Shown: positions 4,727-19,357, counted from the first letter of the stretch. The stretch: 21,234 nt of DNA from a virus (IMGVR_UViG_2698536401_000006); one strand, 5' to 3'. Notes: generated from the sequence alone by a model not told the origin. Program-made: numbers and translations.

Positions 4727-5004
4727 ATTGTGGTGCTTTTTGTGGGAGTCATCCACTTACGCACTTTGTTTTGCCATGCCAGCAGTTAGCTTCTGCTGTA
4801 AAACTATTCATGCAGCAAACCTGCACTTCACCACAATGGTTAGCATACTTTTCCTGATTAAGATTTTGCCAAATATGCTAGCCATTGTTTCATGTATTGG
4901 ACCTCCTTACTTTTTATTAAAGAGATCCAATATTCACTACTCTGTCCGTATCTCTACTCAGGCATCAGCCTTCTTCGTTATCGTATACAGACGAGCGATG
5001 AATT

Positions 5005-5220
5005 TTAATCAGTAATGATGACATTTGCTGCTGCAGGACCTTTAGCACCACTCTCTATAGAGAAGGTAACCTTTTGACCTTCAAATAAGGTTCGATAATT
5101 ATCATTCTGAATCGCAGAAAAATGCACAAACACATCTTTACTACCATCAACAGGAGAAATAAAGCCGAAACCTTTATCAGCGTTAAACCATTTTACTAAA
5201 CCAGTCATTTTATTTGACAT
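5005..5220 (-). CDS. cspB: Cold shock protein CspB
   Basis: 71 aa: [67 protein letters not shown]..., CspA-family signature. Confidence 0.9.
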
Positions 5221-5520
5221 TCTACATTCCTTAACTTGAGCCTTTCGGCATAAATGGTTTGCATAACAGAAACGACTTCGTACTTAATTGGAGAGACTCA
5301 AAGAAGGAATAAGTGAATAACACCTGAAATGAGAACTGCTTTAGTAAACTACTTCGTATATCGTCTGTTCTTCAAACCGACGCAATCATTAACGCATAGT
5401 TGAACATATGAAGCAATGTTTATTTTAGACATCCAGCCATCTTCAACCCCATCAAAAAACTATAGCTTTCTTCAGGAACGTGTGTATAGTGCGCCAAGTT
5501 ATCAGTATTAAGGAATTTTT

Positions 5521-8316: not shown

Positions 8317-8568
8317 TTATTCTCCTGAAAAAGCAGAAAAGCCAGCTTTTATTCCGATCTCTTTCAATGCCTGTAATGAAGTGACAAACTCACCTTCGCG
8401 CAAGATAAATCCGTCCGTGACCCGAGCATCCACAAAATTAATTAACGCAGCCCCATTCTTTCGCAAACACATAATGCGGTAATGACTAACAAGATTTCCA
8501 TTTTCAACGCACACAGCATAGAGGCCATCTTCACAAAAAATTTTACGCAGTTCTTCGATGTTCATCAT
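8317..8568 (-). CDS. Hypothetical 83 aa protein, no recognisable family
   Basis: ORF with SD GGAAGGA 6 nt upstream of ATGATG, downstream of the relBE-hokD terminator. I do not recognise it. Confidence 0.5.
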   Translation of the reverse strand: MMNIEELRKIFCEDGLYAVCVENGNLVSHYRIMCLRKNGAALINFVDARVTDGFILREGEFVTSLQALKEIGIKAGFSAFSGE

Positions 8569-8685
8569 CAGAATCCTTCCGGATAATTAGCTCTCCCCTT
8601 TAAGGGACCATCCCTCTTATCCCTGCGCGCTACTTAAGTATTTTTGATTCTATTCCGGCACCGTCCAGAACTTCAAACGCGTTGA

Positions 8686-10839: not shown

Positions 10840-12153
10840 TCAATCTTTTTTATCGGGATCAGGCTTCTTTTTAGGTAACTTCGGGGGCTTAACTTGCTGA
10901 TGACTTTGCGTTCGGCGCGTAAGCCAGGGATGGTCAGCTTTAGGTTTAACATAGTATTTTGAGCGTAAATCAATACGGGCATTATCCACTCGTTCATGGA
11001 CACTCTTTTCATCATCCAGTGGTATAGGCTCCGGGCCATCAACATACTTTTCCCAGCCCAGCGCTTTCCCGTCATACAGAACGTTAATTTCACCGTCAAA
11101 GTTCTCGCATACAGTAACAACCGAATGCCTAAGTCGATATCCCCGGCCCTCACTGCGTACCTGAAACGCACTGCTTTTGTACTGGAAAGTGAGATTTTTA
11201 GACAGAACGCGCTTCGCCTGTAGGCTGAAGATATAACCCAGTTCCTCTTCAGAATGGTGCACATCAAGATGAGCATTATCAGTAGTACGAGGCGACGTAG
11301 CGAACCGGTTGTTATAGGCTTCAATAAAGGTCGGCAACCATGCATTTGCTGTTTCAATATCACTGATATTCTGAAGCCGCATTTCTTTGACCAGCCTGTC
11401 CTGTAGTGTCTGATTGGCGCGCTCTACCCGCCCTTTTGCCTGCGGGCTGTTGGCATGGATTGGCTCGATGCCCAGTGTCTTTATCGCACGAGTGAACTGG
11501 GTCAGCTCACCTTCCCGCTCTGGGTTATTTACCCTGAATATACTGTGTCTATCAGAGTAGAGAGCGAGCGGTACGCCATGATCATTAAGGTAACCCCGGA
11601 GGGTTTCCATGTAAGCCCGGGTTGTTTCAGCAGGCACAAAACGCAACGCCATCAACGCACTGGTGGCATCATCAATGAAAACGATCAGTGTACATCTGGG
11701 GCCTCGATTTTCAAACCAGTCATGAGGTGAGCCATCAATCTGGATCAGTTCACCGTAAGATGGTCGTCGCATGCGGCGTTGATATATACGGGCAATTTTA
11801 CGACGGCGTTCACGCCATAACCCCTCTTCTATCATCCACTTTCTGAGAGTTTCAACGGATAAAGATAAACCGTGTATCTCGCGCAATTTTTCGCACGCAA
11901 ACGTAGGTCCAAAATCAGCGTAACGGCCTTTGAGGAGTGAAATTACTGTTGCTCTGAATTCAGTAGAAAAGGAATTATTAGGACGCTTTCCACGTCGGTG
12001 GGAAACCAGACCAGAAGGCCCTTCATTTCTATACCGTTGCACCAGACGTTTAACCTGCCGAATAGAAATGCCAATGCGTGCCGCAGCTTGTTCCTGAATA
12101 ATCTGAAGTCGGTGGAGTTCCTTATGACTCATCGTAACAGTCTCTTTGATCAT
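10840..12153 (-). CDS. DDE transposase with N-terminal HTH and rve (integrase-core) domain, IS481-like in architecture
   Basis: 437 aa with an N-terminal HTH region (ISIRQVKRLVQRY) and D/D/E-type core segments (IQIDGSPHDWF, LIVFIDDATS, LYSDRHSIF, ERANQTLQD). IS family is not established and IS ends were not identified. Confidence 0.75.
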   Translation of the reverse strand: MIKETVTMSHKELHRLQIIQEQAAARIGISIRQVKRLVQRYRNEGPSGLVSHRRGKRPNNSFSTEFRATVISLLKGRYADFGPTFACEKLREIHGLSLSVETLRKWMIEEGLWRERRRKIARIYQRRMRRPSYGELIQIDGSPHDWFENRGPRCTLIVFIDDATSALMALRFVPAETTRAYMETLRGYLNDHGVPLALYSDRHSIFRVNNPEREGELTQFTRAIKTLGIEPIHANSPQAKGRVERANQTLQDRLVKEMRLQNISDIETANAWLPTFIEAYNNRFATSPRTTDNAHLDVHHSEEELGYIFSLQAKRVLSKNLTFQYKSSAFQVRSEGRGYRLRHSVVTVCENFDGEINVLYDGKALGWEKYVDGPEPIPLDDEKSVHERVDNARIDLRSKYYVKPKADHPWLTRRTQSHQQVKPPKLPKKKPDPDKKD

Positions 12154-12370
12154 GAAAAATCCCCCAGAGAATTGTCTGGGGACATTTTAGAATGGTTCAA
12201 AGGGGACATTACAGCTTGGTGTTAACAATAGCCTGCTTCTCCGTGCCTTTCGGCACGTAAGAGGCTAACCTACATGTGTCTAGCATGAAATTGGCCTCAG
12301 ATTAATGTTAAGCGTCTTGCAGGACGCGTAATGTTAACTGGGGCTTTTCTCTATCTGCCGTTGGTGTCCA

Positions 12371-12402
12371 TGCCCGAGGCAGATAGCCTCAAGCACCCGC
12401 CG
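12371..12402 (+). repeat. Left copy of a 32 bp imperfect direct repeat flanking the low-GC cassette
   Basis: TGCCCGAGGCAGATAGCCTCAAGCACCCGCCG; 27 of 32 nt match the copy at 14390-14421, with an identical 14-nt core CCTCAAGCACCCGC. Confidence 0.6.
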
Positions 12403-12636: not shown

Positions 12637-13665
12637 TTACGCCTTAATAGGGTTAATCACATTTCCGCTATCCGTACCATAGTATTTTTTTGTAGTCATG
12701 CCTTGTTTATAATAATCATTTAACAGTTTGAGAAAGTTTCTTCCTTGCCTCTCATCTTCTATGACTAATTTACCATGCTCATTGGTCTTAAACTCTTCGT
12801 TCTGAAACATTTTTAGCACATCATTCATAGCTTGAACATCATTCTTTTCCAGAACCGTATGGTTACCTTTCTCAGCGATATGAGTGAGAATTTTTCTCAG
12901 TGATGGCTTATGAAGAATAGCTTGTTCAATAACATCTAAACCTTCAATAAGATCAAGTTCTTTAATTGTATTTAATGTTTTTTGTGCAGCTTCTGTAAAC
13001 TCAACCTCCAAGCCTACAATAGCCTCAAAACTTTTCTTATGAAATACATAAAATTGATCTTTTATATAAATACAATCGATTTTGTCATCAAAATTGACTG
13101 CGCTGCCATCAAATGATCTTAACTCTTTATCTGTTTTATCAAACAAAGCGAATACGCGCTGAGTCATATTTTGTGGTTCATTTGTTGTGACTTTCCCCCT
13201 GCTGATTTTTCGGAAAGAATAAGTGACGTCAGCCCCCTTTTGGACTTTAATACAATAGGCCCACAAATCATTCTGAACCTCAGCCAGAGAGGTAAGTACA
13301 ACTGGTTTATCATTCTTTATATCGTTATTAATAACTTTTGAAAACGATATCGCGTTATTCATAGCATAGGCATAAATCTTATTATCAATATCATCATCAA
13401 TAACAGTATACTTTTTCATCACAATATCATCTTTCGAAGCATGAGAAATAATCTGGTTTGATAAAGTATACTTAAAAAATTTAGCAATATCTGGAGCGAT
13501 TGGAGCTTTAATGATTTTAAAATCGAATTTATCAACAACTCTTGCGGTTCTACTCATACCCGCTTTAAGATGTCTAGTAATGAAATACAACGATATTTTC
13601 GCCGCATCATCATCCTTAAGTTGCTCAGCATACTCTAATAATTCTTCAAGCTTTAACATTTTCAT
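12637..13665 (-). CDS. Hypothetical 342 aa soluble protein, second gene of the low-GC cassette (candidate defence effector/sensor)
   Basis: AT-rich ORF with Lys/Asn/Ile-biased codon usage unlike the surrounding prophage. Translationally coupled (ATGA overlap) to the upstream membrane protein gene. No motif I can name. Confidence 0.75.
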   Translation of the reverse strand: MKMLKLEELLEYAEQLKDDDAAKISLYFITRHLKAGMSRTARVVDKFDFKIIKAPIAPDIAKFFKYTLSNQIISHASKDDIVMKKYTVIDDDIDNKIYAYAMNNAISFSKVINNDIKNDKPVVLTSLAEVQNDLWAYCIKVQKGADVTYSFRKISRGKVTTNEPQNMTQRVFALFDKTDKELRSFDGSAVNFDDKIDCIYIKDQFYVFHKKSFEAIVGLEVEFTEAAQKTLNTIKELDLIEGLDVIEQAILHKPSLRKILTHIAEKGNHTVLEKNDVQAMNDVLKMFQNEEFKTNEHGKLVIEDERQGRNFLKLLNDYYKQGMTTKKYYGTDSGNVINPIKA

Positions 13666-14484: not shown

Positions 14485-15171
14485 TCACTCCTTCTCTTCT
14501 TTATCGTAGTGGAGTTGACCAATTTTGATAAGAGGGCGTCCCTGAGATTTGCGGTGTAGATTGGTATCGCGCAGAGAATACACACAGCCACAATATTCCT
14601 GCTGATAGAATTTTTCGCGCTTGCTGATTTCAATCATGCGGGACGAGCCGCCCTGCTTGCGCCAGTTATAATCCCAGTACACCATGCCCGGATAATGCGC
14701 GACGGCTCGCCGCCCACAGTCGTTAACCTGCTGCATATTTTTCCAGCGTGAAATGCCCAGTGAACTGCTGATCACACTGAAACCATTTTCAGCAGCGTAC
14801 AGCGCTGTCCGCTCAAAACGCATGTCAAAACACATGGTACAACGGATCCCCCTCTCGGGCTCCCATTCCATTCCTTTGGCACGTTCAAACCAGTTGTCTG
14901 TGTCGTAATCAGCATCAATAAATGGCACGCCGTGTTGTTCAGCAAAGCGAATATTCTCATCCTTACGAATTAAATACTCTTTCTGAGGATGAATGTTCGG
15001 GTTGTAGAAAAAGATGGTATAGTCGATTCCCGAGGCCTGAAGCGCCTCCATCACTTCACCGGAACATGGAGCACAGCAAGAGTGCAGTAGTAGTTTGTTT
15101 GCCCCGTTTGGGAGCTCCAATTTAGGCCGTTTGAAATCAGCAATAGTCATAAATATTTTTATTGGGGTCAT
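14485..15171 (-). CDS. QueH-like protein (DUF208, epoxyqueuosine reductase family)
   Basis: 228 aa containing [14 protein letters not shown] near the N-terminus, the Cys motif I associate with QueH/DUF208, plus further conserved Cys (CTMC, CGC). Start could be the internal Met at 15150. Confidence 0.65.
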
Positions 15172-15786: not shown

Positions 15787-16806
15787 TTATCCTCTGAAAC
15801 CAGGCGGAATTTCTGTATCCGGTTCAGAAATATGATTAACACAACGCTGTACAGGTGAACGCCCCAGGCGGATGACCAGTTCGTCCCATTTTTCGCGGAG
15901 CTTTGACGGGCTCATGATGTTTTTTACCCAGAATGGATCCCGCTGTACCCGACCAAACATTTCACAAATTTGTCTGTGGCTTCTGCCATCCAGCATCCGC
16001 ATTGTGCGCACATCATTGGCCCAGACAGTCCAGTTAGGCTCTTTTGGTCGCATGATCTCGCCATCATCACTGGCGGCCTGTTCGTAGAGACCCACGATCC
16101 GCCCCCATATCCACTGCGCACACGCCAGATCCTCCTGGCTACCCCACTGGCGTTTTTTCGCACTAAACACAACTGCGCCAGGGTGCCGGATTAAAAAATC
16201 CTGTTCAGCCGTCTGCGGGTCCGGTTGCGAAGCTTCCGGACGAAAAGTGTTTTTATTCTCTGTAGTAATCTCTGTTGTATTCTCTGTAGGATCATCGGGC
16301 CATTTTGACCCGATGACATTGGGTCGTTTTGAACCAATGGAGCGTTTCATTTTGACCTCTTCCATCGTGTCATTTTGACCTGATGGAGCGGCGCATTTTG
16401 AACCGATGGATTCGCTCAATTTGCCATCATCTAAAAGCTCGCTCCCATAGTTAATCGTGTAGAAATTGGTCATATCGCGCTTTGATTTATTGAGCTTTTC
16501 ACAACGCAAAAGCCCCAGCGTTTTCAGACTTGCAAACGCGCGCTTTAACGTTGACTCTGACCAGAATGGGAACTGTTCCAGCCATTGTTCCGTTGTGTTG
16601 TAAATCCAGCGAACACCATCACATTCCATGCCGGAATTGGTATCTCTCAACCAGTAATGCAACTGCTGCAACACAATGGCTTCATTTAAGCCAATCTTCA
16701 TCGCAAGCTGTGTGTTTATAACCAGTGGGCGTTCAGCAAAAAGAAGGCTCATAATTCCATCCAGCTTTTTGTTGGTATTGCTGTCGATACGCAAGTTTGA
16801 AAGCAA
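15787..16806 (-). CDS. Lambda O-like replication initiator with the origin embedded in its coding sequence
   Basis: 339 aa with an N-terminal winged-helix-like region. Five iterons in the middle of the gene give the peptide repeats SIGSK/VIGSK. Lies downstream of cro-like dicC. Start may be the internal Met at 16752. Confidence 0.7.
   Translation of the reverse strand: MLSNLRIDSNTNKKLDGIMSLLFAERPLVINTQLAMKIGLNEAIVLQQLHYWLRDTNSGMECDGVRWIYNTTEQWLEQFPFWSESTLKRAFASLKTLGLLRCEKLNKSKRDMTNFYTINYGSELLDDGKLSESIGSKCAAPSGQNDTMEEVKMKRSIGSKRPNVIGSKWPDDPTENTTEITTENKNTFRPEASQPDPQTAEQDFLIRHPGAVVFSAKKRQWGSQEDLACAQWIWGRIVGLYEQAASDDGEIMRPKEPNWTVWANDVRTMRMLDGRSHRQICEMFGRVQRDPFWVKNIMSPSKLREKWDELVIRLGRSPVQRCVNHISEPDTEIPPGFRG
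16295..16410. repeat. Replication origin iterons: five copies of about CATTTTGA(C/A)C(C/T)GATGG at 23-24 bp spacing
   Basis: Copies start near 16301, 16325, 16348, 16371 and 16394; the first is part of the palindrome TCATCGGG..CCCGATGA. An adjacent AT-rich tract with ACAGAGAATA repeats (16230-16290) lies on the downstream side, as in lambda ori. Confidence 0.75.
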
Positions 16807-17254
16807 TTGCTTTTTCTATAAGTTCGTCAGTTTCACGATCCACTACGGCAGGATCAGCAAAAAGCAGTCCGGACTCCACCACATCGCCATATTCTTTGTT
16901 TAACCCGGCGATCATGTACGTGATGCTTTTTCCGTCACTAATTTCACGATGCAACCTGAAATCATTAATCCGGATAGCCTCCATAATTGCAGGCACTAGC
17001 GCCGTGAACTTTTCACGCTTATCCCTGGTGTCGATAGCCTTCCAGCGTTCGAATATCTTCACTCGATTAACGCCAAGCGCTCGCTGATCAACCGCGCCAC
17101 CTTCATCTGTGACACGCTGAACATCGATGTTCGGGCGCTCTTTCAAAGCCCAGAATGCTTCAGTGATTAATATCGTCGCCTGCTCCTGTGTCATTCCTGG
17201 TCGACATATCCAGGCATCCAGAGCCTCACGAGCCTGTTCAGGAGTGATTTTCAT
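16733..17254 (-). CDS. Hypothetical 173 aa early protein adjacent to dicC (cII/YdaT position)
   Basis: ORF overlapping the dicC stop. Possible weak resemblance to YdaT-type proteins, but this is from uncertain memory only. Confidence 0.55.
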   Translation of the reverse strand: MKITPEQAREALDAWICRPGMTQEQATILITEAFWALKERPNIDVQRVTDEGGAVDQRALGVNRVKIFERWKAIDTRDKREKFTALVPAIMEAIRINDFRLHREISDGKSITYMIAGLNKEYGDVVESGLLFADPAVVDRETDELIEKAIAFKLAYRQQYQQKAGWNYEPSFC

Positions 17255-17465
17255 TGTTCAACCGCCCCGCCCGCTTCGTCTTACGATATTCGTCATAAAC
17301 CTTGGGATCATACAGAAGCTCGCCGCCAGATGCCTCCTGTAGACGCATCGCGCGACCTTCAGGAACCAGCTCTTGCCATTGAGAAACAGCAGATGGGTCA
17401 ACGCCAGCAGCTTTCGCTACTTTGGCTTTCGTACCGTAAAAATTAATTACGTCTGATTTAAACAT
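17238..17465 (-). CDS. dicC: Cro-like repressor DicC
   Basis: The C-terminal ...LVPEGRAMRLQEASGGELLYDPKVYDEYRKTKRAGRLNNENHS matches remembered DicC. Probable start is the ATG at 17465 (MFKSDVINFYG) with SD GGAGG; the ORF track extends to 17492. Confidence 0.8.
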   Translation of the reverse strand: MFKSDVINFYGTKAKVAKAAGVDPSAVSQWQELVPEGRAMRLQEASGGELLYDPKVYDEYRKTKRAGRLNNENHS

Positions 17466-17542
17466 CGCACCTCCAATATTGAGTTTTCTCAATGCTAATC
17501 ACTCAAGGAATCTCAAGTCAAGGGTTATTAAGATATCTAAAT
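17466..17542. promoter_or_regulatory. dicC/dicA divergent promoter-operator region with palindrome TTGAGTTTTCTCAA
   Basis: 77 bp between divergent cro-like and cI-like genes. Perfect palindrome at 17479-17492; the related motif recurs at 18016-18027 and, inverted, at 18052-18063. Confidence 0.65.
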
Positions 17543-17950
17543 ATGAACGAGAAAACTTTAGGTCAACGCATTAGAGAAAGACGTAAGCAGGTAGGCTTAA
17601 GTCAAAACGGTTTAAGCAAAGCTGCTGGCGTATCTGGCTCATCAATTTCATTATGGGAAAGTGACCATACAGCCCCGCGCGGGCAAAATTTGCATCGCCT
17701 CGCCGAGGTATTGCAATGTTCACCAACCTGGATACTGTTTGGCGACGAGGACAAAACACCAGCTCCCCCTGTTTCACTCGATAGTGCCTTAGACTTATCG
17801 GAAGATGAGTTAGAGATGCTGCGTTTGTATCGCGCACTTCCTAAATCAGAGCAACAAGCACAACTCAGCGAACTCCGCGCCCGCGTTGAGAATTTTAATC
17901 GCCTGTTCACCGAGCTATTAGAGGCTCGCAAACGCAACAAGCATCAATAA
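17543..17950 (+). CDS. dicA: cI-like HTH repressor DicA
   Basis: 135 aa from the ATG at 17543 (MNEKTLGQRIRERRKQVGLSQNGLSKAAGVSGSSISLWE...LQCSPTWILFGDEDK...), matching remembered DicA in length and motifs. The ORF track extends to 17492. Confidence 0.85.
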   Translation: MNEKTLGQRIRERRKQVGLSQNGLSKAAGVSGSSISLWESDHTAPRGQNLHRLAEVLQCSPTWILFGDEDKTPAPPVSLDSALDLSEDELEMLRLYRALPKSEQQAQLSELRARVENFNRLFTELLEARKRNKHQ

Positions 17951-18013
17951 TCATCCCTTCACAAAATTTTAAAGCCTTACATTTCAATGTATTGGCTTTA
18001 TCTTGCGCCAATA

Positions 18014-18066
18014 CTTGAGTTTTCTCATCAAAAAGCCTTGACGAAAAATAATGAGAAAACTAAATT
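18014..18066 (+). promoter_or_regulatory. PdicB-like promoter (TTGACG-N17-TAAATT) flanked by inverted DicA-operator motifs
   Basis: -35 TTGACG at 18038-18043 and -10 TAAATT at 18061-18066. Operator half-sites GAGTTTTCTCA (18016-18027) and TGAGAAAACTAA (18052-18063) bracket the promoter. Confidence 0.65.
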
Positions 18067-18142
18067 ACCTCCATCAACACACCGCACGGTGTTCTCAGCA
18101 AACAGTTCCGCTACCCCGGCGTTAAGGGGAAATGAGGTCAGC

Positions 18143-18295
18143 ATGGATACTATCGATCTTGGCAACAGCGAATCTCTGGTATGTGGCGTGTTCCCCAACC
18201 AGGACGGTACGTTCACCGCGATGACATATACCAAAAGCAAAACGTTTAAAACCGAATCTGGCGCGCGTTGCTGGTTAGCCAGAAACACTGACTGA
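18143..18295 (+). CDS. ydfA: YdfA-like small protein
   Basis: 50 aa from the ATG at 18143: MDTIDLGNSESLVCGVFPNQDGTFTAMTYTKSKTFKTESGARCWLARNTD, matching remembered YdfA. Confidence 0.75.
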   Translation: MDTIDLGNSESLVCGVFPNQDGTFTAMTYTKSKTFKTESGARCWLARNTD

Positions 18296-18672
18296 TGAGG
18301 CTGACGATGGAATTTAAAGATTTACCGTCTGATGTACAGAAAACAGCAGCTCATACATTGCATTCTGTGCTGCGAGAAATCGGGAAAGATATTGCAAGCG
18401 AGCCAGCAAAAGATCTGGCCCGGAAAATCAAGACCGCTTTCGTTGAGCTTTATAATGTTGGCACTGACTCTGAAACTGTCGAGACCAAGACCGTAAGTTC
18501 ACCAATATTCTCACTTGAGCCAGGCGTATTATCAGGTGAAATATGCACCGAGATTTCCAGCGAACTGCTTCCGGTAATACGAGAAGCAATTTGCCGTCGC
18601 GGTTTGGATGGAAGTTACGATCATGACGTCCTGCAAGTTCTCAGGACAATGGTGACTTCACTGGGGATTTGA
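18295..18672 (+). CDS. YdfB/YdfC-like protein as a single continuous 125 aa ORF
   Basis: Starts MRLTMEFKDLPSDVQK... overlapping the ydfA stop (TGATG). K-12 annotates two short genes (ydfB, ydfC) here, as I recall. Confidence 0.6.
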   Translation: MRLTMEFKDLPSDVQKTAAHTLHSVLREIGKDIASEPAKDLARKIKTAFVELYNVGTDSETVETKTVSSPIFSLEPGVLSGEICTEISSELLPVIREAICRRGLDGSYDHDVLQVLRTMVTSLGI

Positions 18673-18753
18673 TCCCTGCGTCCTCTAACCCGAGTTGTCA
18701 GGTTGACCATACGCTTAAGTGACAACCCCGCTGCAACGCCCTCTGTTATCAAT

Positions 18754-18811
18754 TTTCTGGTGACGTTTGGCGGTATCAGTTTTACTCCGTGACTGCTCTG
18801 CCGCCGTTTTT
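18754..18811 (+). ncRNA. dicF: DicF small regulatory RNA (ftsZ-targeting sRNA) with intrinsic terminator
   Basis: TTTCTGGTGACGTTTGGCGGTATCAGTTTTACTCCGTGACTGCTCTGCCGCCGTTTTT matches remembered DicF, including the terminal hairpin and U-run. Located between ydfB/C and dicB. Confidence 0.8.
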
Positions 18812-18980
18812 AAAGTGAATTTTGTGATGCGGTGAATGCGGCTAAGCGCACGCGGAACAGTTAAAACCAAAAACAGTGTTATGGGTAGATTCTCTGTATC
18901 CGGCGTTAATTGTTAACTGGTTAACGTCACCTGGAGGCACCAGGCACTGCATCACAAAATTCATTGTTGAGGACGCGATA

Positions 18981-19169
18981 ATGAAAACGTTATTACCAAA
19001 CGTTAATACGTCTGAAGGTTGTTTTGAAATTGGTGTCACTATCAGTAACCCTGTATTTACTGAAGATGCCATTAACAAGAGAAAACAAGAACGGGAGCTA
19101 TTAAATAAAATATGCATTGTTTCAATGCTGGCTCGTTTACGTCTGATGCCAAAAGGATGTGCACAATGA
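18981..19169 (+). CDS. dicB: Cell-division inhibitor DicB
   Basis: 62 aa from the ATG at 18981: MKTLLPNVNTSEGCFEIGVTISNPVFTEDAINKRKQERELLNKICIVSMLARLRLMPKGCAQ. Confidence 0.85.
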   Translation: MKTLLPNVNTSEGCFEIGVTISNPVFTEDAINKRKQERELLNKICIVSMLARLRLMPKGCAQ

Positions 19170-19357
19170 ATTCAGCATTTGCGCTTGTTCTGACAGTTTT
19201 TCTTGTTTCCGGAGAGCCAGTTGATATTGCAGTCAGTGTTCACAGGACAATGCAGGAGTGTATGACTGCAGCAACCGAACAGAAAATTCCCGGTAACTGT
19301 TACCCGGTCGATAAAGTTATTCACCAGGATAATATCGAAATCCCGGCAGGTCTTTAA
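19166..19357 (+). CDS. ydfD: YdfD-like small membrane (lysis-type) protein
   Basis: 63 aa from the ATG at 19166 (MNSAFALVLTVFLVSGEPVDIAVSVHRTMQECMTAATEQKIPGNCYPVDKVIHQDNIEIPAGL), with an N-terminal hydrophobic segment. ATGA overlap with dicB. Confidence 0.75.
   Translation: MNSAFALVLTVFLVSGEPVDIAVSVHRTMQECMTAATEQKIPGNCYPVDKVIHQDNIEIPAGL

Follow-up and report, generated by a model that had tools for sequence, protein, structure and literature searches.

In the Qin prophage of Escherichia coli K-12, the regulators DicA and DicC form a bistable pair resembling CI and Cro (PMC10448788), and lambda-like operators lie between dicA and dicC and at the dicB promoter, dicBp, according to the account of Bejar et al. 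(1988) relayed in PMC10448788. DicA binds one of these sites, Oc (TTGTTAGTCATAACTAACAA), in a sequence-specific manner in vivo, where it represses dicC and activates dicA (Yun et al. 2012, PMC3441716), whereas Om and Oa alone are not bound by DicA in vivo in K-12 (PMC3441716). The promoter dicBp is strongly repressed by DicA, and this repression is relieved by the antirepressor Rem (PMC10448788); in the Reg-Seq study the DicA site at dicB is listed as a low-evidence site of unknown location (PMC7567609). DicA has been placed in the family of short, Gifsy-type repressors (GfoR/GtgR) that are inactivated by antirepressors (PMC3121763).

Two further lambdoid systems are relevant for comparison. 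The operators of phage P22 follow the pattern TTAAG-N4-CTTAA, with the consensus ATTTAAGATATCTTAAAT (PMC5175364; PDB 2R1J). In the P22 repressor C2, Val33 is packed on the methyl groups of TTAA, with Gln37 close to the bases (PMC5175364), and binding is tightest when the non-contacted centre of the operator is an A-tract (KD of 4.3 nM, compared with 14.4 and 57.6 nM; PMC4267663). The prophage CP-933P of E. coli O157:H7 (PaaR2/YdaS), cryptic and lambdoid like K-12 Qin, has a divergent repressor and Cro-like YdaS pair together with ydaT; its repressor gene is leaderless, and footprinting has located repeats both at PR/PRM and at a promoter resembling PL (PMC8630535). Repressor and Cro use the same operators in lambda, P22 and CP-933P (PMC10448788, PMC8630535). 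In the literature searched, neither the motif string examined below nor its operator sequence was described, and for phage HannyBb, which carries an identical repressor, nothing relevant was found.

The stretch of DNA analysed here (the window; 21,234 nucleotides, IMGVR_UViG_2698536401_000006) comes from an E. coli other than K-12 and is the prophage at its Qin site. The sequence matches that of E. coli strain A1 at 100% identity; in A1 the prophage retains head and tail genes that are interrupted by IS elements, and it ends at an integrase beside rspB. The prophage site and the gene order (ydaT-like, cro-like, repressor, ydfA, DicF, dicB) are those of K-12 Qin, and rem is also present, encoding a Rem identical to that of K-12. 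The genes and larger elements of the immunity region are as follows.

16733-17254, minus strand: YdaT-family gene.
17238-17465, minus strand: Cro-like regulator in the dicC position (75 aa; Pfam P22_Cro, E 3e-16; annotated as a Cro/CI family regulator).
About 17359-18086 (about 730 bp), no strand: variant, predicted heteroimmune, immunity cassette relative to K-12 Qin, delimited by sliding identity comparison.
17543-17950, plus strand: repressor in the dicA position (135 aa; Pfam HTH_3, E 2e-15).
17970-18000, plus strand: terminator-like hairpin after the repressor gene (-11.3 kcal/mol, z -3.5).
18143-19357, plus strand: controlled operon, comprising ydfA (DUF1391), an unnamed ORF, the DicF sRNA, dicB and ydfD.
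18143-18295, plus strand: ydfA/DUF1391.
18755-18806, plus strand: DicF sRNA (Rfam).
18981-19169, plus strand: dicB.

The repressor is composed of an N-terminal helix-turn-helix (HTH) part homologous to the DNA-binding domain of P22 C2, with which residues 1-72 are colinear and ungapped (1adr/2r1j, E ~1e-15), and a DicA-type C-terminal part. It equals K-12 DicA in length (135 aa) and resembles it in the C-terminal part, with an overall identity of 57%, and differs from it in the recognition helix, which reads SGSSISLW in the window and SHVSVSQW in K-12. The names DicA and dicC are therefore used here only to denote position, because the repressor is a predicted heteroimmune homologue. No Pfam match to a peptidase or self-cleaving protease domain was found in it; Gifsy-type repressors are likewise short and free of RecA-dependent cleavage, and their operator sequences are unrelated to those of the window. 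By inspection, the repressor ATG is not preceded by a Shine-Dalgarno sequence. Phage HannyBb, deposited as a complete genome, carries the identical repressor beside the same regulatory DNA. The CP-933P repressor, of low similarity, belongs to another family, and that system further differs in its consensus (GTTTAGTAA), its four evenly spaced repeats and its linked toxin-antitoxin pair.

The divergence from K-12 is confined to a cassette, within which identity falls to 23-75%, compared with mostly 93-100% directly outside it. Its one end falls within the cro-like gene, beyond the segment that encodes the HTH, and its other end immediately after the -10 element of the dicB-side promoter, so that it encloses the two HTH regions together with all copies of the motif described below. 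The N-terminal HTH half of the Cro-like protein thus falls inside the cassette and covaries with the allele. An alignment to K-12 with a 1.1-kb query recovers the flanks only, 34% of the query. The same variant module is present, at a threshold of at least 80% coverage, in 797 of 5,426 complete E. coli genomes (about 15%). As judged from these comparisons, the module in the window is of an immunity specificity other than that of K-12 DicA.

A consensus promoter scan of positions 17200-18400 yielded two promoter-like sites and no others; each is overlapped by copies of one motif, a 13-mer that recurs at the two promoters at different positions relative to the -35 and -10 elements. The promoters, the predicted and candidate operators and one further partial copy are listed below.

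17478-17493, no strand: O1, predicted strongest operator (ATTGAGTTTTCTCAAT; core TTGAGTTTTCTCAA, 17479-17492).
17492-17521, minus strand: promoter-like site of the cro/dicC-like gene (PR analogue), with -35 TTGACT at 17521-17516, an 18-bp spacer and -10 TAGCAT at 17497-17492.
17503-17516, no strand: O2, weaker candidate operator (TCAAGGAATCTCAA), 24 bp from O1.
17528-17541, no strand: O3, candidate operator (TTAAGATATCTAAA), 25 bp from O2.
17549-17557, minus strand: fourth copy of the 9-mer AGTTTTCTC, inside repressor codons 3-5.
18015-18028, plus strand: OLa, predicted operator (TTGAGTTTTCTCAT), with one mismatch to the O1 14-mer and 536 bp to its right.
18038-18066, plus strand: promoter-like site of the ydfA-DicF-dicB operon (dicBp or PL analogue), with TTGACG at 18038-18043, N17 and TAAATT at 18061-18066.
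18051-18064, minus strand: OLb, predicted operator (TTTAGTTTTCTCAT, which is ATGAGAAAACTAAA on the plus strand), with two mismatches to the O1 14-mer.

O1 lies in the 77-bp spacer between the divergent cro-like and repressor genes, where an earlier note on this DNA had placed a 14-bp palindrome. The element is present at that place, and its symmetry is imperfect: the 5-bp arms TTGAG and CTCAA, which extend to 6 bp (ATTGAG/CTCAAT) when the flanking bases are included, enclose a non-symmetric TTTT centre. The note had further called the motif DicA-operator-like, a description that holds for its position and fails for its sequence, which is unlike K-12 Oc: the O1 16-mer set against second-promoter regions of K-12 type, and the converse comparison, gave best matches with 6-7 mismatches of 16; the K-12 operator reads GTTAGTCATAACTAAC in place of TTGAG-TTTT-CTCAA. 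O1 shares the last base of the -10 element of the cro/dicC-side promoter and spans its start region. The distance from the centre of O1 to the conserved GTCAA of the -35 region is 31 bp, compared with 32 bp in K-12, and the GTCAAG block of this promoter is kept in all alleles and in P22.

The second promoter was also found by the consensus scan, in agreement with the TTGACG-N17-TAAATT promoter that the note had proposed upstream of ydfA-dicF-dicB. The inverted, related half-sites said to bracket it are indeed inverted copies flanking the -35 element, but they are full-length 14-bp sites, one on each side. OLa lies upstream of the -35 element and is conserved while its flanks diverge. OLb, 572 bp to the right of O1, spans the promoter spacer and four nucleotides of the -10 element, and its outer half is CTAAA rather than CTCAA, which fits a double duty as part of the hexamer TAAATT; this block is common to several otherwise different alleles. 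O1, OLa and OLb all have the TTTT centre.

The arrangement at the second promoter is closely paralleled in the described systems. The early-left promoter of P22 (TTGACC ... TAAATT) is homologous to that of the window, and the surrounding PL region is visibly homologous (...TTAAGTTTTCTTCAAAAATACACTTGACC...TTAAGAAGTATTAAATTT), with OLa in the position of OL2 and OLb in that of OL1. The start-to-start distance between OLa and OLb is 36 bp, compared with 35 bp between OL2 and OL1 in P22, 35 bp between the two sites around the -35 element of K-12 dicBp, to which OLa and OLb correspond in position, and 34-36 bp in the ten modules measured besides that of the window. A spacing of 36 bp amounts to about 3.4 helical turns and gives no obvious advantage to cooperative binding side by side. 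A third site resembling OL3 of P22 was sought about 19 bp upstream of OLa, where nothing operator-like was present, and no counterpart of OL3 was found in the window. The inverted repeat TATTGGC-N10-GCCAATA (17991-18014) was considered for this role and rejected, as it is lost in a 90%-identical variant. A middle site between OLa and OLb was likewise discarded, the 22-bp gap containing the -35 element alone.

Two weaker sites in the dicC-dicA spacer, O2 and O3, were missed by the earlier note. O2 sits between the -35 and -10 elements of the cro-side promoter and differs from O1 at two of ten half-site positions, with a GAAT centre. O3 stops two bases short of the repressor ATG and consists of the half-sites TTAAG and TTTAG around an ATAT centre; it matches the P22 consensus core at 13 of 14 positions. 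O1, O2 and O3 follow one another in steps of 24 and 25 bp, centre to centre, and are the positional equivalents of Oc, Om and Oa in K-12. P22 likewise has three sites between its divergent genes, with OR3 placed against the c2 ATG as O3 is against that of the repressor, and in the P22 record the 5' end of the PRM transcript lies 4 nt before the c2 ATG, in keeping with the missing Shine-Dalgarno sequence before the repressor ATG of the window. Together, O1, O2 and O3 are a candidate array of the OR1-OR2-OR3 type, in which O2 and O3 are the weaker matches. By analogy with K-12, O2 and O3 may not be repressor sites on their own, because DicA in vivo bound Oc and not Om or Oa. Conservation of O2 is only moderate, and that of O3 could instead stem from the repressor promoter and translation start.

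The predicted operators share with those of P22 their geometry, two 5-bp half-sites around a 4-bp A/T-rich centre. They differ from them at the third half-site position, which is G in the window (TTGAG) and A in P22 (TTAAG), and O1, OLa and OLb have two to three mismatches to the ten half-site positions of the P22 core, O3 alone being close to it (one mismatch of ten).

Three matches to the O1 14-mer with at most two mismatches occur in the 21-kb window, where 0.38 are expected, and none of 100 shuffles reached three. The 9-mer AGTTTTCTC occurs four times (0.26 expected). The prophage-wide scan proposed by the note was extended to the window and 20 kb on each side in E. coli A1 (about 61 kb), and gave no other match at up to two mismatches, near rem or elsewhere. 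A three-mismatch match at 12991 and a match to a degenerate pattern at 13462 are within chance expectation. The copy of the 9-mer in the repressor gene was rejected as an operator, being only 10/14 identical to O1 and absent from the Buttiauxella homologues; it is probably a chance or lineage-specific occurrence.

The note had also said that a lack of conservation in related prophages would count against its reading, and the sites are in fact conserved. The sample comprised 86 same-allele loci (from IMG/VR, E. coli genomes and metagenome-assembled genomes, MAGs) and two homologues from Buttiauxella, with repressors 74-76% identical to that of the window. Operator columns vary less than other intergenic columns in both spacers: 4 of 42 compared with 22 of 36 in the cro-repressor spacer (18 haplotypes; Fisher 2e-6), and 8 of 28 compared with 75 of 96 after the repressor gene (35 haplotypes; Fisher 4e-6), these P values being indicative only, because the haplotypes are related by descent and independence is overstated. 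O1 is invariant across the 18 haplotypes except for its outermost T, O3 is invariant in all 18 with Buttiauxella included, and O2 varies at 3 of 14 columns, in Buttiauxella only. Substitutions accumulate as far as the edges of O1, OLa and OLb. In Buttiauxella, ATTGAGTTTTCTCAAT is found at both promoters, though the surrounding spacers are essentially unalignable, and TTAAGATATCTAAA again stands against the repressor ATG. The cross-genus sample is small, since the scan of genome contigs yielded 13 loci, three of which are E. coli-like contigs binned into unrelated MAGs.

Comparison across alleles links the sites to the regulators encoded beside them. Thirteen DicA-type modules, from E. coli, Citrobacter, Buttiauxella, Yersinia, Rosenbergiella, Symbiopectobacterium and a Stenotrophomonas phage, all carry a near-palindrome 31-34 bp from the conserved GTCAA block, and the eleven in which the second promoter was measured, as well as P22, have two related sites 34-36 bp apart around its -35 element. 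The sequence of the site changes with the recognition helix of the repressor, as follows.

Helix SGSSISLW or SDSSISLW (window, Buttiauxella): TTGAG-TTTT-CTCAA.
Helix SHVSVSQW (K-12 type): GTTAGTCATAACTAAC.
Helix AHVTISQW or SHVTISQW (other modules): GTTAGATTTTTCTAAC.

When the 16-mer at the O1 position of each module is compared with the second promoter, there are 0-3 mismatches of 16 within a type and 4-8 between types, and the mismatch matrix of the 13 modules is block-structured. The HTH of the Cro-like protein changes in step (GVDPSAVSQW in the window and Buttiauxella, GIRLASLYSW in K-12), so the covariation ties the sites to the regulator pair and not to one protein.

This raises the alternative that the sites are used mainly or only by the Cro-like protein in the dicC position. 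The switching of its HTH with the allele would be accounted for, as would the observation that DicA does not bind Om and Oa in K-12 (PMC3441716). The reading is nonetheless improbable. Operators are common to repressor and Cro in the three systems cited above, DicA of K-12 acts as a repressor at dicBp (PMC10448788) and binds Oc, whose position corresponds to that of O1 (PMC3441716), and the 5+4+5 geometry of the sites fits the DNA-binding domain of P22 C2, a homologue of this repressor.

Very unlikely is a second alternative, in which the repeats reflect conserved promoter architecture (an A-tract or UP-like element, the context of the -10 hexamer) or sites for Fis, IHF or H-NS. The sites are A/T-rich and contain an A-tract, OLb overlaps the TAAATT shared by several alleles, and the discussion in PMC10448788 includes reports that nucleoid proteins silence Qin. 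A host factor would, however, give no need for the site sequence to switch with a phage recognition helix while its position is kept, and neither it nor promoter architecture explains the same 13-mer at two promoters with different placement relative to -35 and -10.

The inverted copies at the second promoter could also be read as a nucleic acid structure, since 18012-18028 and 18051-18067 form a 17-nt inverted repeat that is 88% complementary, with a predicted RNA fold of -11.2 kcal/mol (z -3.2), and might act as an attenuator, a read-through terminator or a cruciform. Any two near-palindromic operators are complementary by construction, however, no U-tract follows, the separate terminator-like hairpin lies upstream at 17970-18000 (where the consensus terminator scan made no call), and the copy at 17479-17492 is left unexplained, so that we give this reading hardly any weight. 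Equally hard to credit is a chance repeat or a duplication relic without present function, for although short A/T-rich repeats are common and the fourth 9-mer copy, in a coding region, looks like chance, the shuffles never matched the observed count, the sites are kept across genera while their flanks diverge, and the identical module is found in phage HannyBb, a complete genome of which has been deposited.

The sites, their positions relative to the promoters, their conservation footprint and their covariation with the recognition helix make it very probable that the repeats are operators of the adjacent 135-aa repressor, probably shared with the Cro-like protein. The note's proposal of repressor sites at both promoters is thereby upheld in substance, with the repressor being a predicted heteroimmune protein only 57% identical to DicA. 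On sequence comparison the arrangement is that of a standard lambdoid/P22 immunity region, with a site sequence that differs from that of K-12.

The mode of regulation can be modelled on homology with K-12 DicA and P22 C2, from which binding, dimer stoichiometry, order of occupancy and mode of induction are taken. A repressor dimer would bind a 14-16-bp site through two 5-bp half-sites (TTGAG and CTCAA) separated by a 4-bp A/T tract. The analogy predicts high affinity for O1, OLa and OLb and weaker binding at O2 and O3. Occupation of O1 would block the cro-side promoter, and occupation of OLb together with OLa would exclude RNA polymerase from the promoter of ydfA-DicF-dicB, so that DicF and DicB, which inhibit division, and YdfD, a lysis protein, would remain silent. 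O2 and O3 may be filled cooperatively or at high repressor concentration, or may be preferred by the Cro-like protein, which would use the same sites in the opposite order of preference, O3 first, and so shut off the repressor gene. As Pfam gave no match to a self-cleaving protease domain in the repressor, derepression would be expected to proceed through an antirepressor (Rem) and not through RecA-mediated cleavage.

Two more far-reaching interpretations are tentative, and we consider it doubtful that either will hold: that the locus is a natural specificity swap in the P22 C2 fold, or that one unchanged Rem controls heteroimmune DicA alleles. The DNA-facing residues are G32, S33 and L37 in the window repressor and N32, V33 and Q37 in P22; under a swap, the changes N32G, V33S and Q37L may have occurred together with that at half-site position 3 (A to G). 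Likewise, residues 44, 46 and 48 are A44, R46 and Q48 in the window repressor and E44, N46 and E48 in P22 (residue roles: PMC5175364, PMC4267663). This second set of substitutions, at the central minor groove, may go with the conversion of the 4-bp centre, uncontacted in P22, into a TTTT that hardly varies. Should Arg46 read the narrowed groove of the A-tract directly, the non-contacted centre of a P22-type operator would here be a contacted specificity element. With regard to Rem, the identical antirepressor could possibly act through the conserved C-terminal half of the DicA alleles.

The predicted operators are probably what keeps dicF, dicB and ydfD off, and with them the inhibition of cell division, the alteration of phage receptors and cell lysis. 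Cross-repression between K-12 DicA and the repressor of the window is unlikely. As the variant module is the one present in the 797 genomes, the K-12 DicA operator is therefore unsuitable for predicting regulation in them. For K-12 itself, the allele series predicts where DicA would bind at dicBp.

In the identity comparison with K-12 Qin, the mosaic borders of the stretch 17359–18086 are sharp: identity to K-12 is 23–75% within it and mostly 93–100% directly outside. The low-identity stretch coincides exactly with the cro helix-turn-helix region, the spacer, the gene for the repressor and the promoter on the dicB side, and high identity resumes just past the −10 element of that promoter. The prophage also carries an insertion that is not in the K-12 layout; it separates the replication genes from the part of Qin that resembles K-12. 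The features of the insertion, and two leaders associated with prophage cold-shock genes, are as follows.

11111–12154, minus strand: ISNCY transposase remnant, in the insertion
12227–12398, minus strand: sok-like antisense RNA (Rfam, 104 bits), in the insertion
12638–13660, minus strand: KwaB-like gene (Kiwa defence), in the insertion
14485–15150, minus strand: QueH gene, in the insertion
2094–2479 and 4989–5381, both minus strand: two cspA-type thermoregulator leaders, upstream of cspI and cspB

In the phage HannyBb record (L003, 2950–3408), the repressor is begun at an upstream ATG, as a protein of 152 residues whose gene overlaps the candidate operator O1. The upstream ATG of the window lies at 17492, and the RefSeq start at 17543 yields 135 residues; alignments with P22 C2 and K-12 DicA lend support to the 135-residue form. 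Because no Shine–Dalgarno sequence precedes the start at 17543, the repressor mRNA may be leaderless. Two further features, one just past the end of the gene and one inside it, are listed here.

17970–18000, plus strand: hairpin AAAGCCU...GGCUUU followed by AUCUU, directly past the repressor stop codon
17549–17557, minus strand: fourth exact copy of AGTTTTCTC, in repressor codons 3–5

The hairpin, which a simple terminator scan missed, is probably the terminator of the repressor gene. A distance of 19 bp separates the fourth AGTTTTCTC copy from the centre of the candidate operator O3 (17528–17541) in the spacer, and this copy is absent from the Buttiauxella homologues. Of the 14 positions of O3 itself, 13 agree with the consensus core of the P22 operator, TTAAGATATCTTAA. 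O3 is nearer to that core than to O1 of its own module and is unchanged across genera in the haplotype comparison; promoter or translation-start constraints, or the Cro-like protein, may preserve its sequence. On the dicB side, in regions equivalent to 18015–18066 of the window from IMG/VR loci among L012–L091, rare haplotypes carry single changes within the operators or the −10 element (TTGAGCTTTCTCAT, TTGAGTTTTATCAT, TTGAGTTTTCTCAC, ATGATAAAACTAAA and ATGAGAAAACCAAATC), which could be operator-constitutive or decay mutations.

Modules of the DicA type also occur in records assigned to other bacteria. Stenotrophomonas phage vB_SmeS_BUCT709 (L005; recorded host Stenotrophomonas) has a module of the DicA/DicC type whose operators are arranged as in the window, with sites of the GTTAGATTTTTCTAAC type and a repressor 51% identical to that of the window. 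E. coli-type DicA modules on contigs of metagenome-assembled genomes labelled Bacillota, Veillonella parvula and Collinsella (L092, L093 and L097), two with a repressor 100% identical to that of the window and one of K-12 type, are probably mis-binned E. coli prophage DNA.

The antirepressor gene has the following position.

8318–8569, minus strand: rem, antirepressor gene (product WP_000980994.1)

This same RefSeq protein is the Rem product in both the window and K-12, and its presumed target in the window, the repressor, is only 57% identical to K-12 DicA. The action of Gifsy antirepressors extends to heteroimmune repressors (PMC3121763). By analogy with them, Rem may target the conserved C-terminal half of the repressor; or else Rem and the repressor would be a mismatched pair in this strain.
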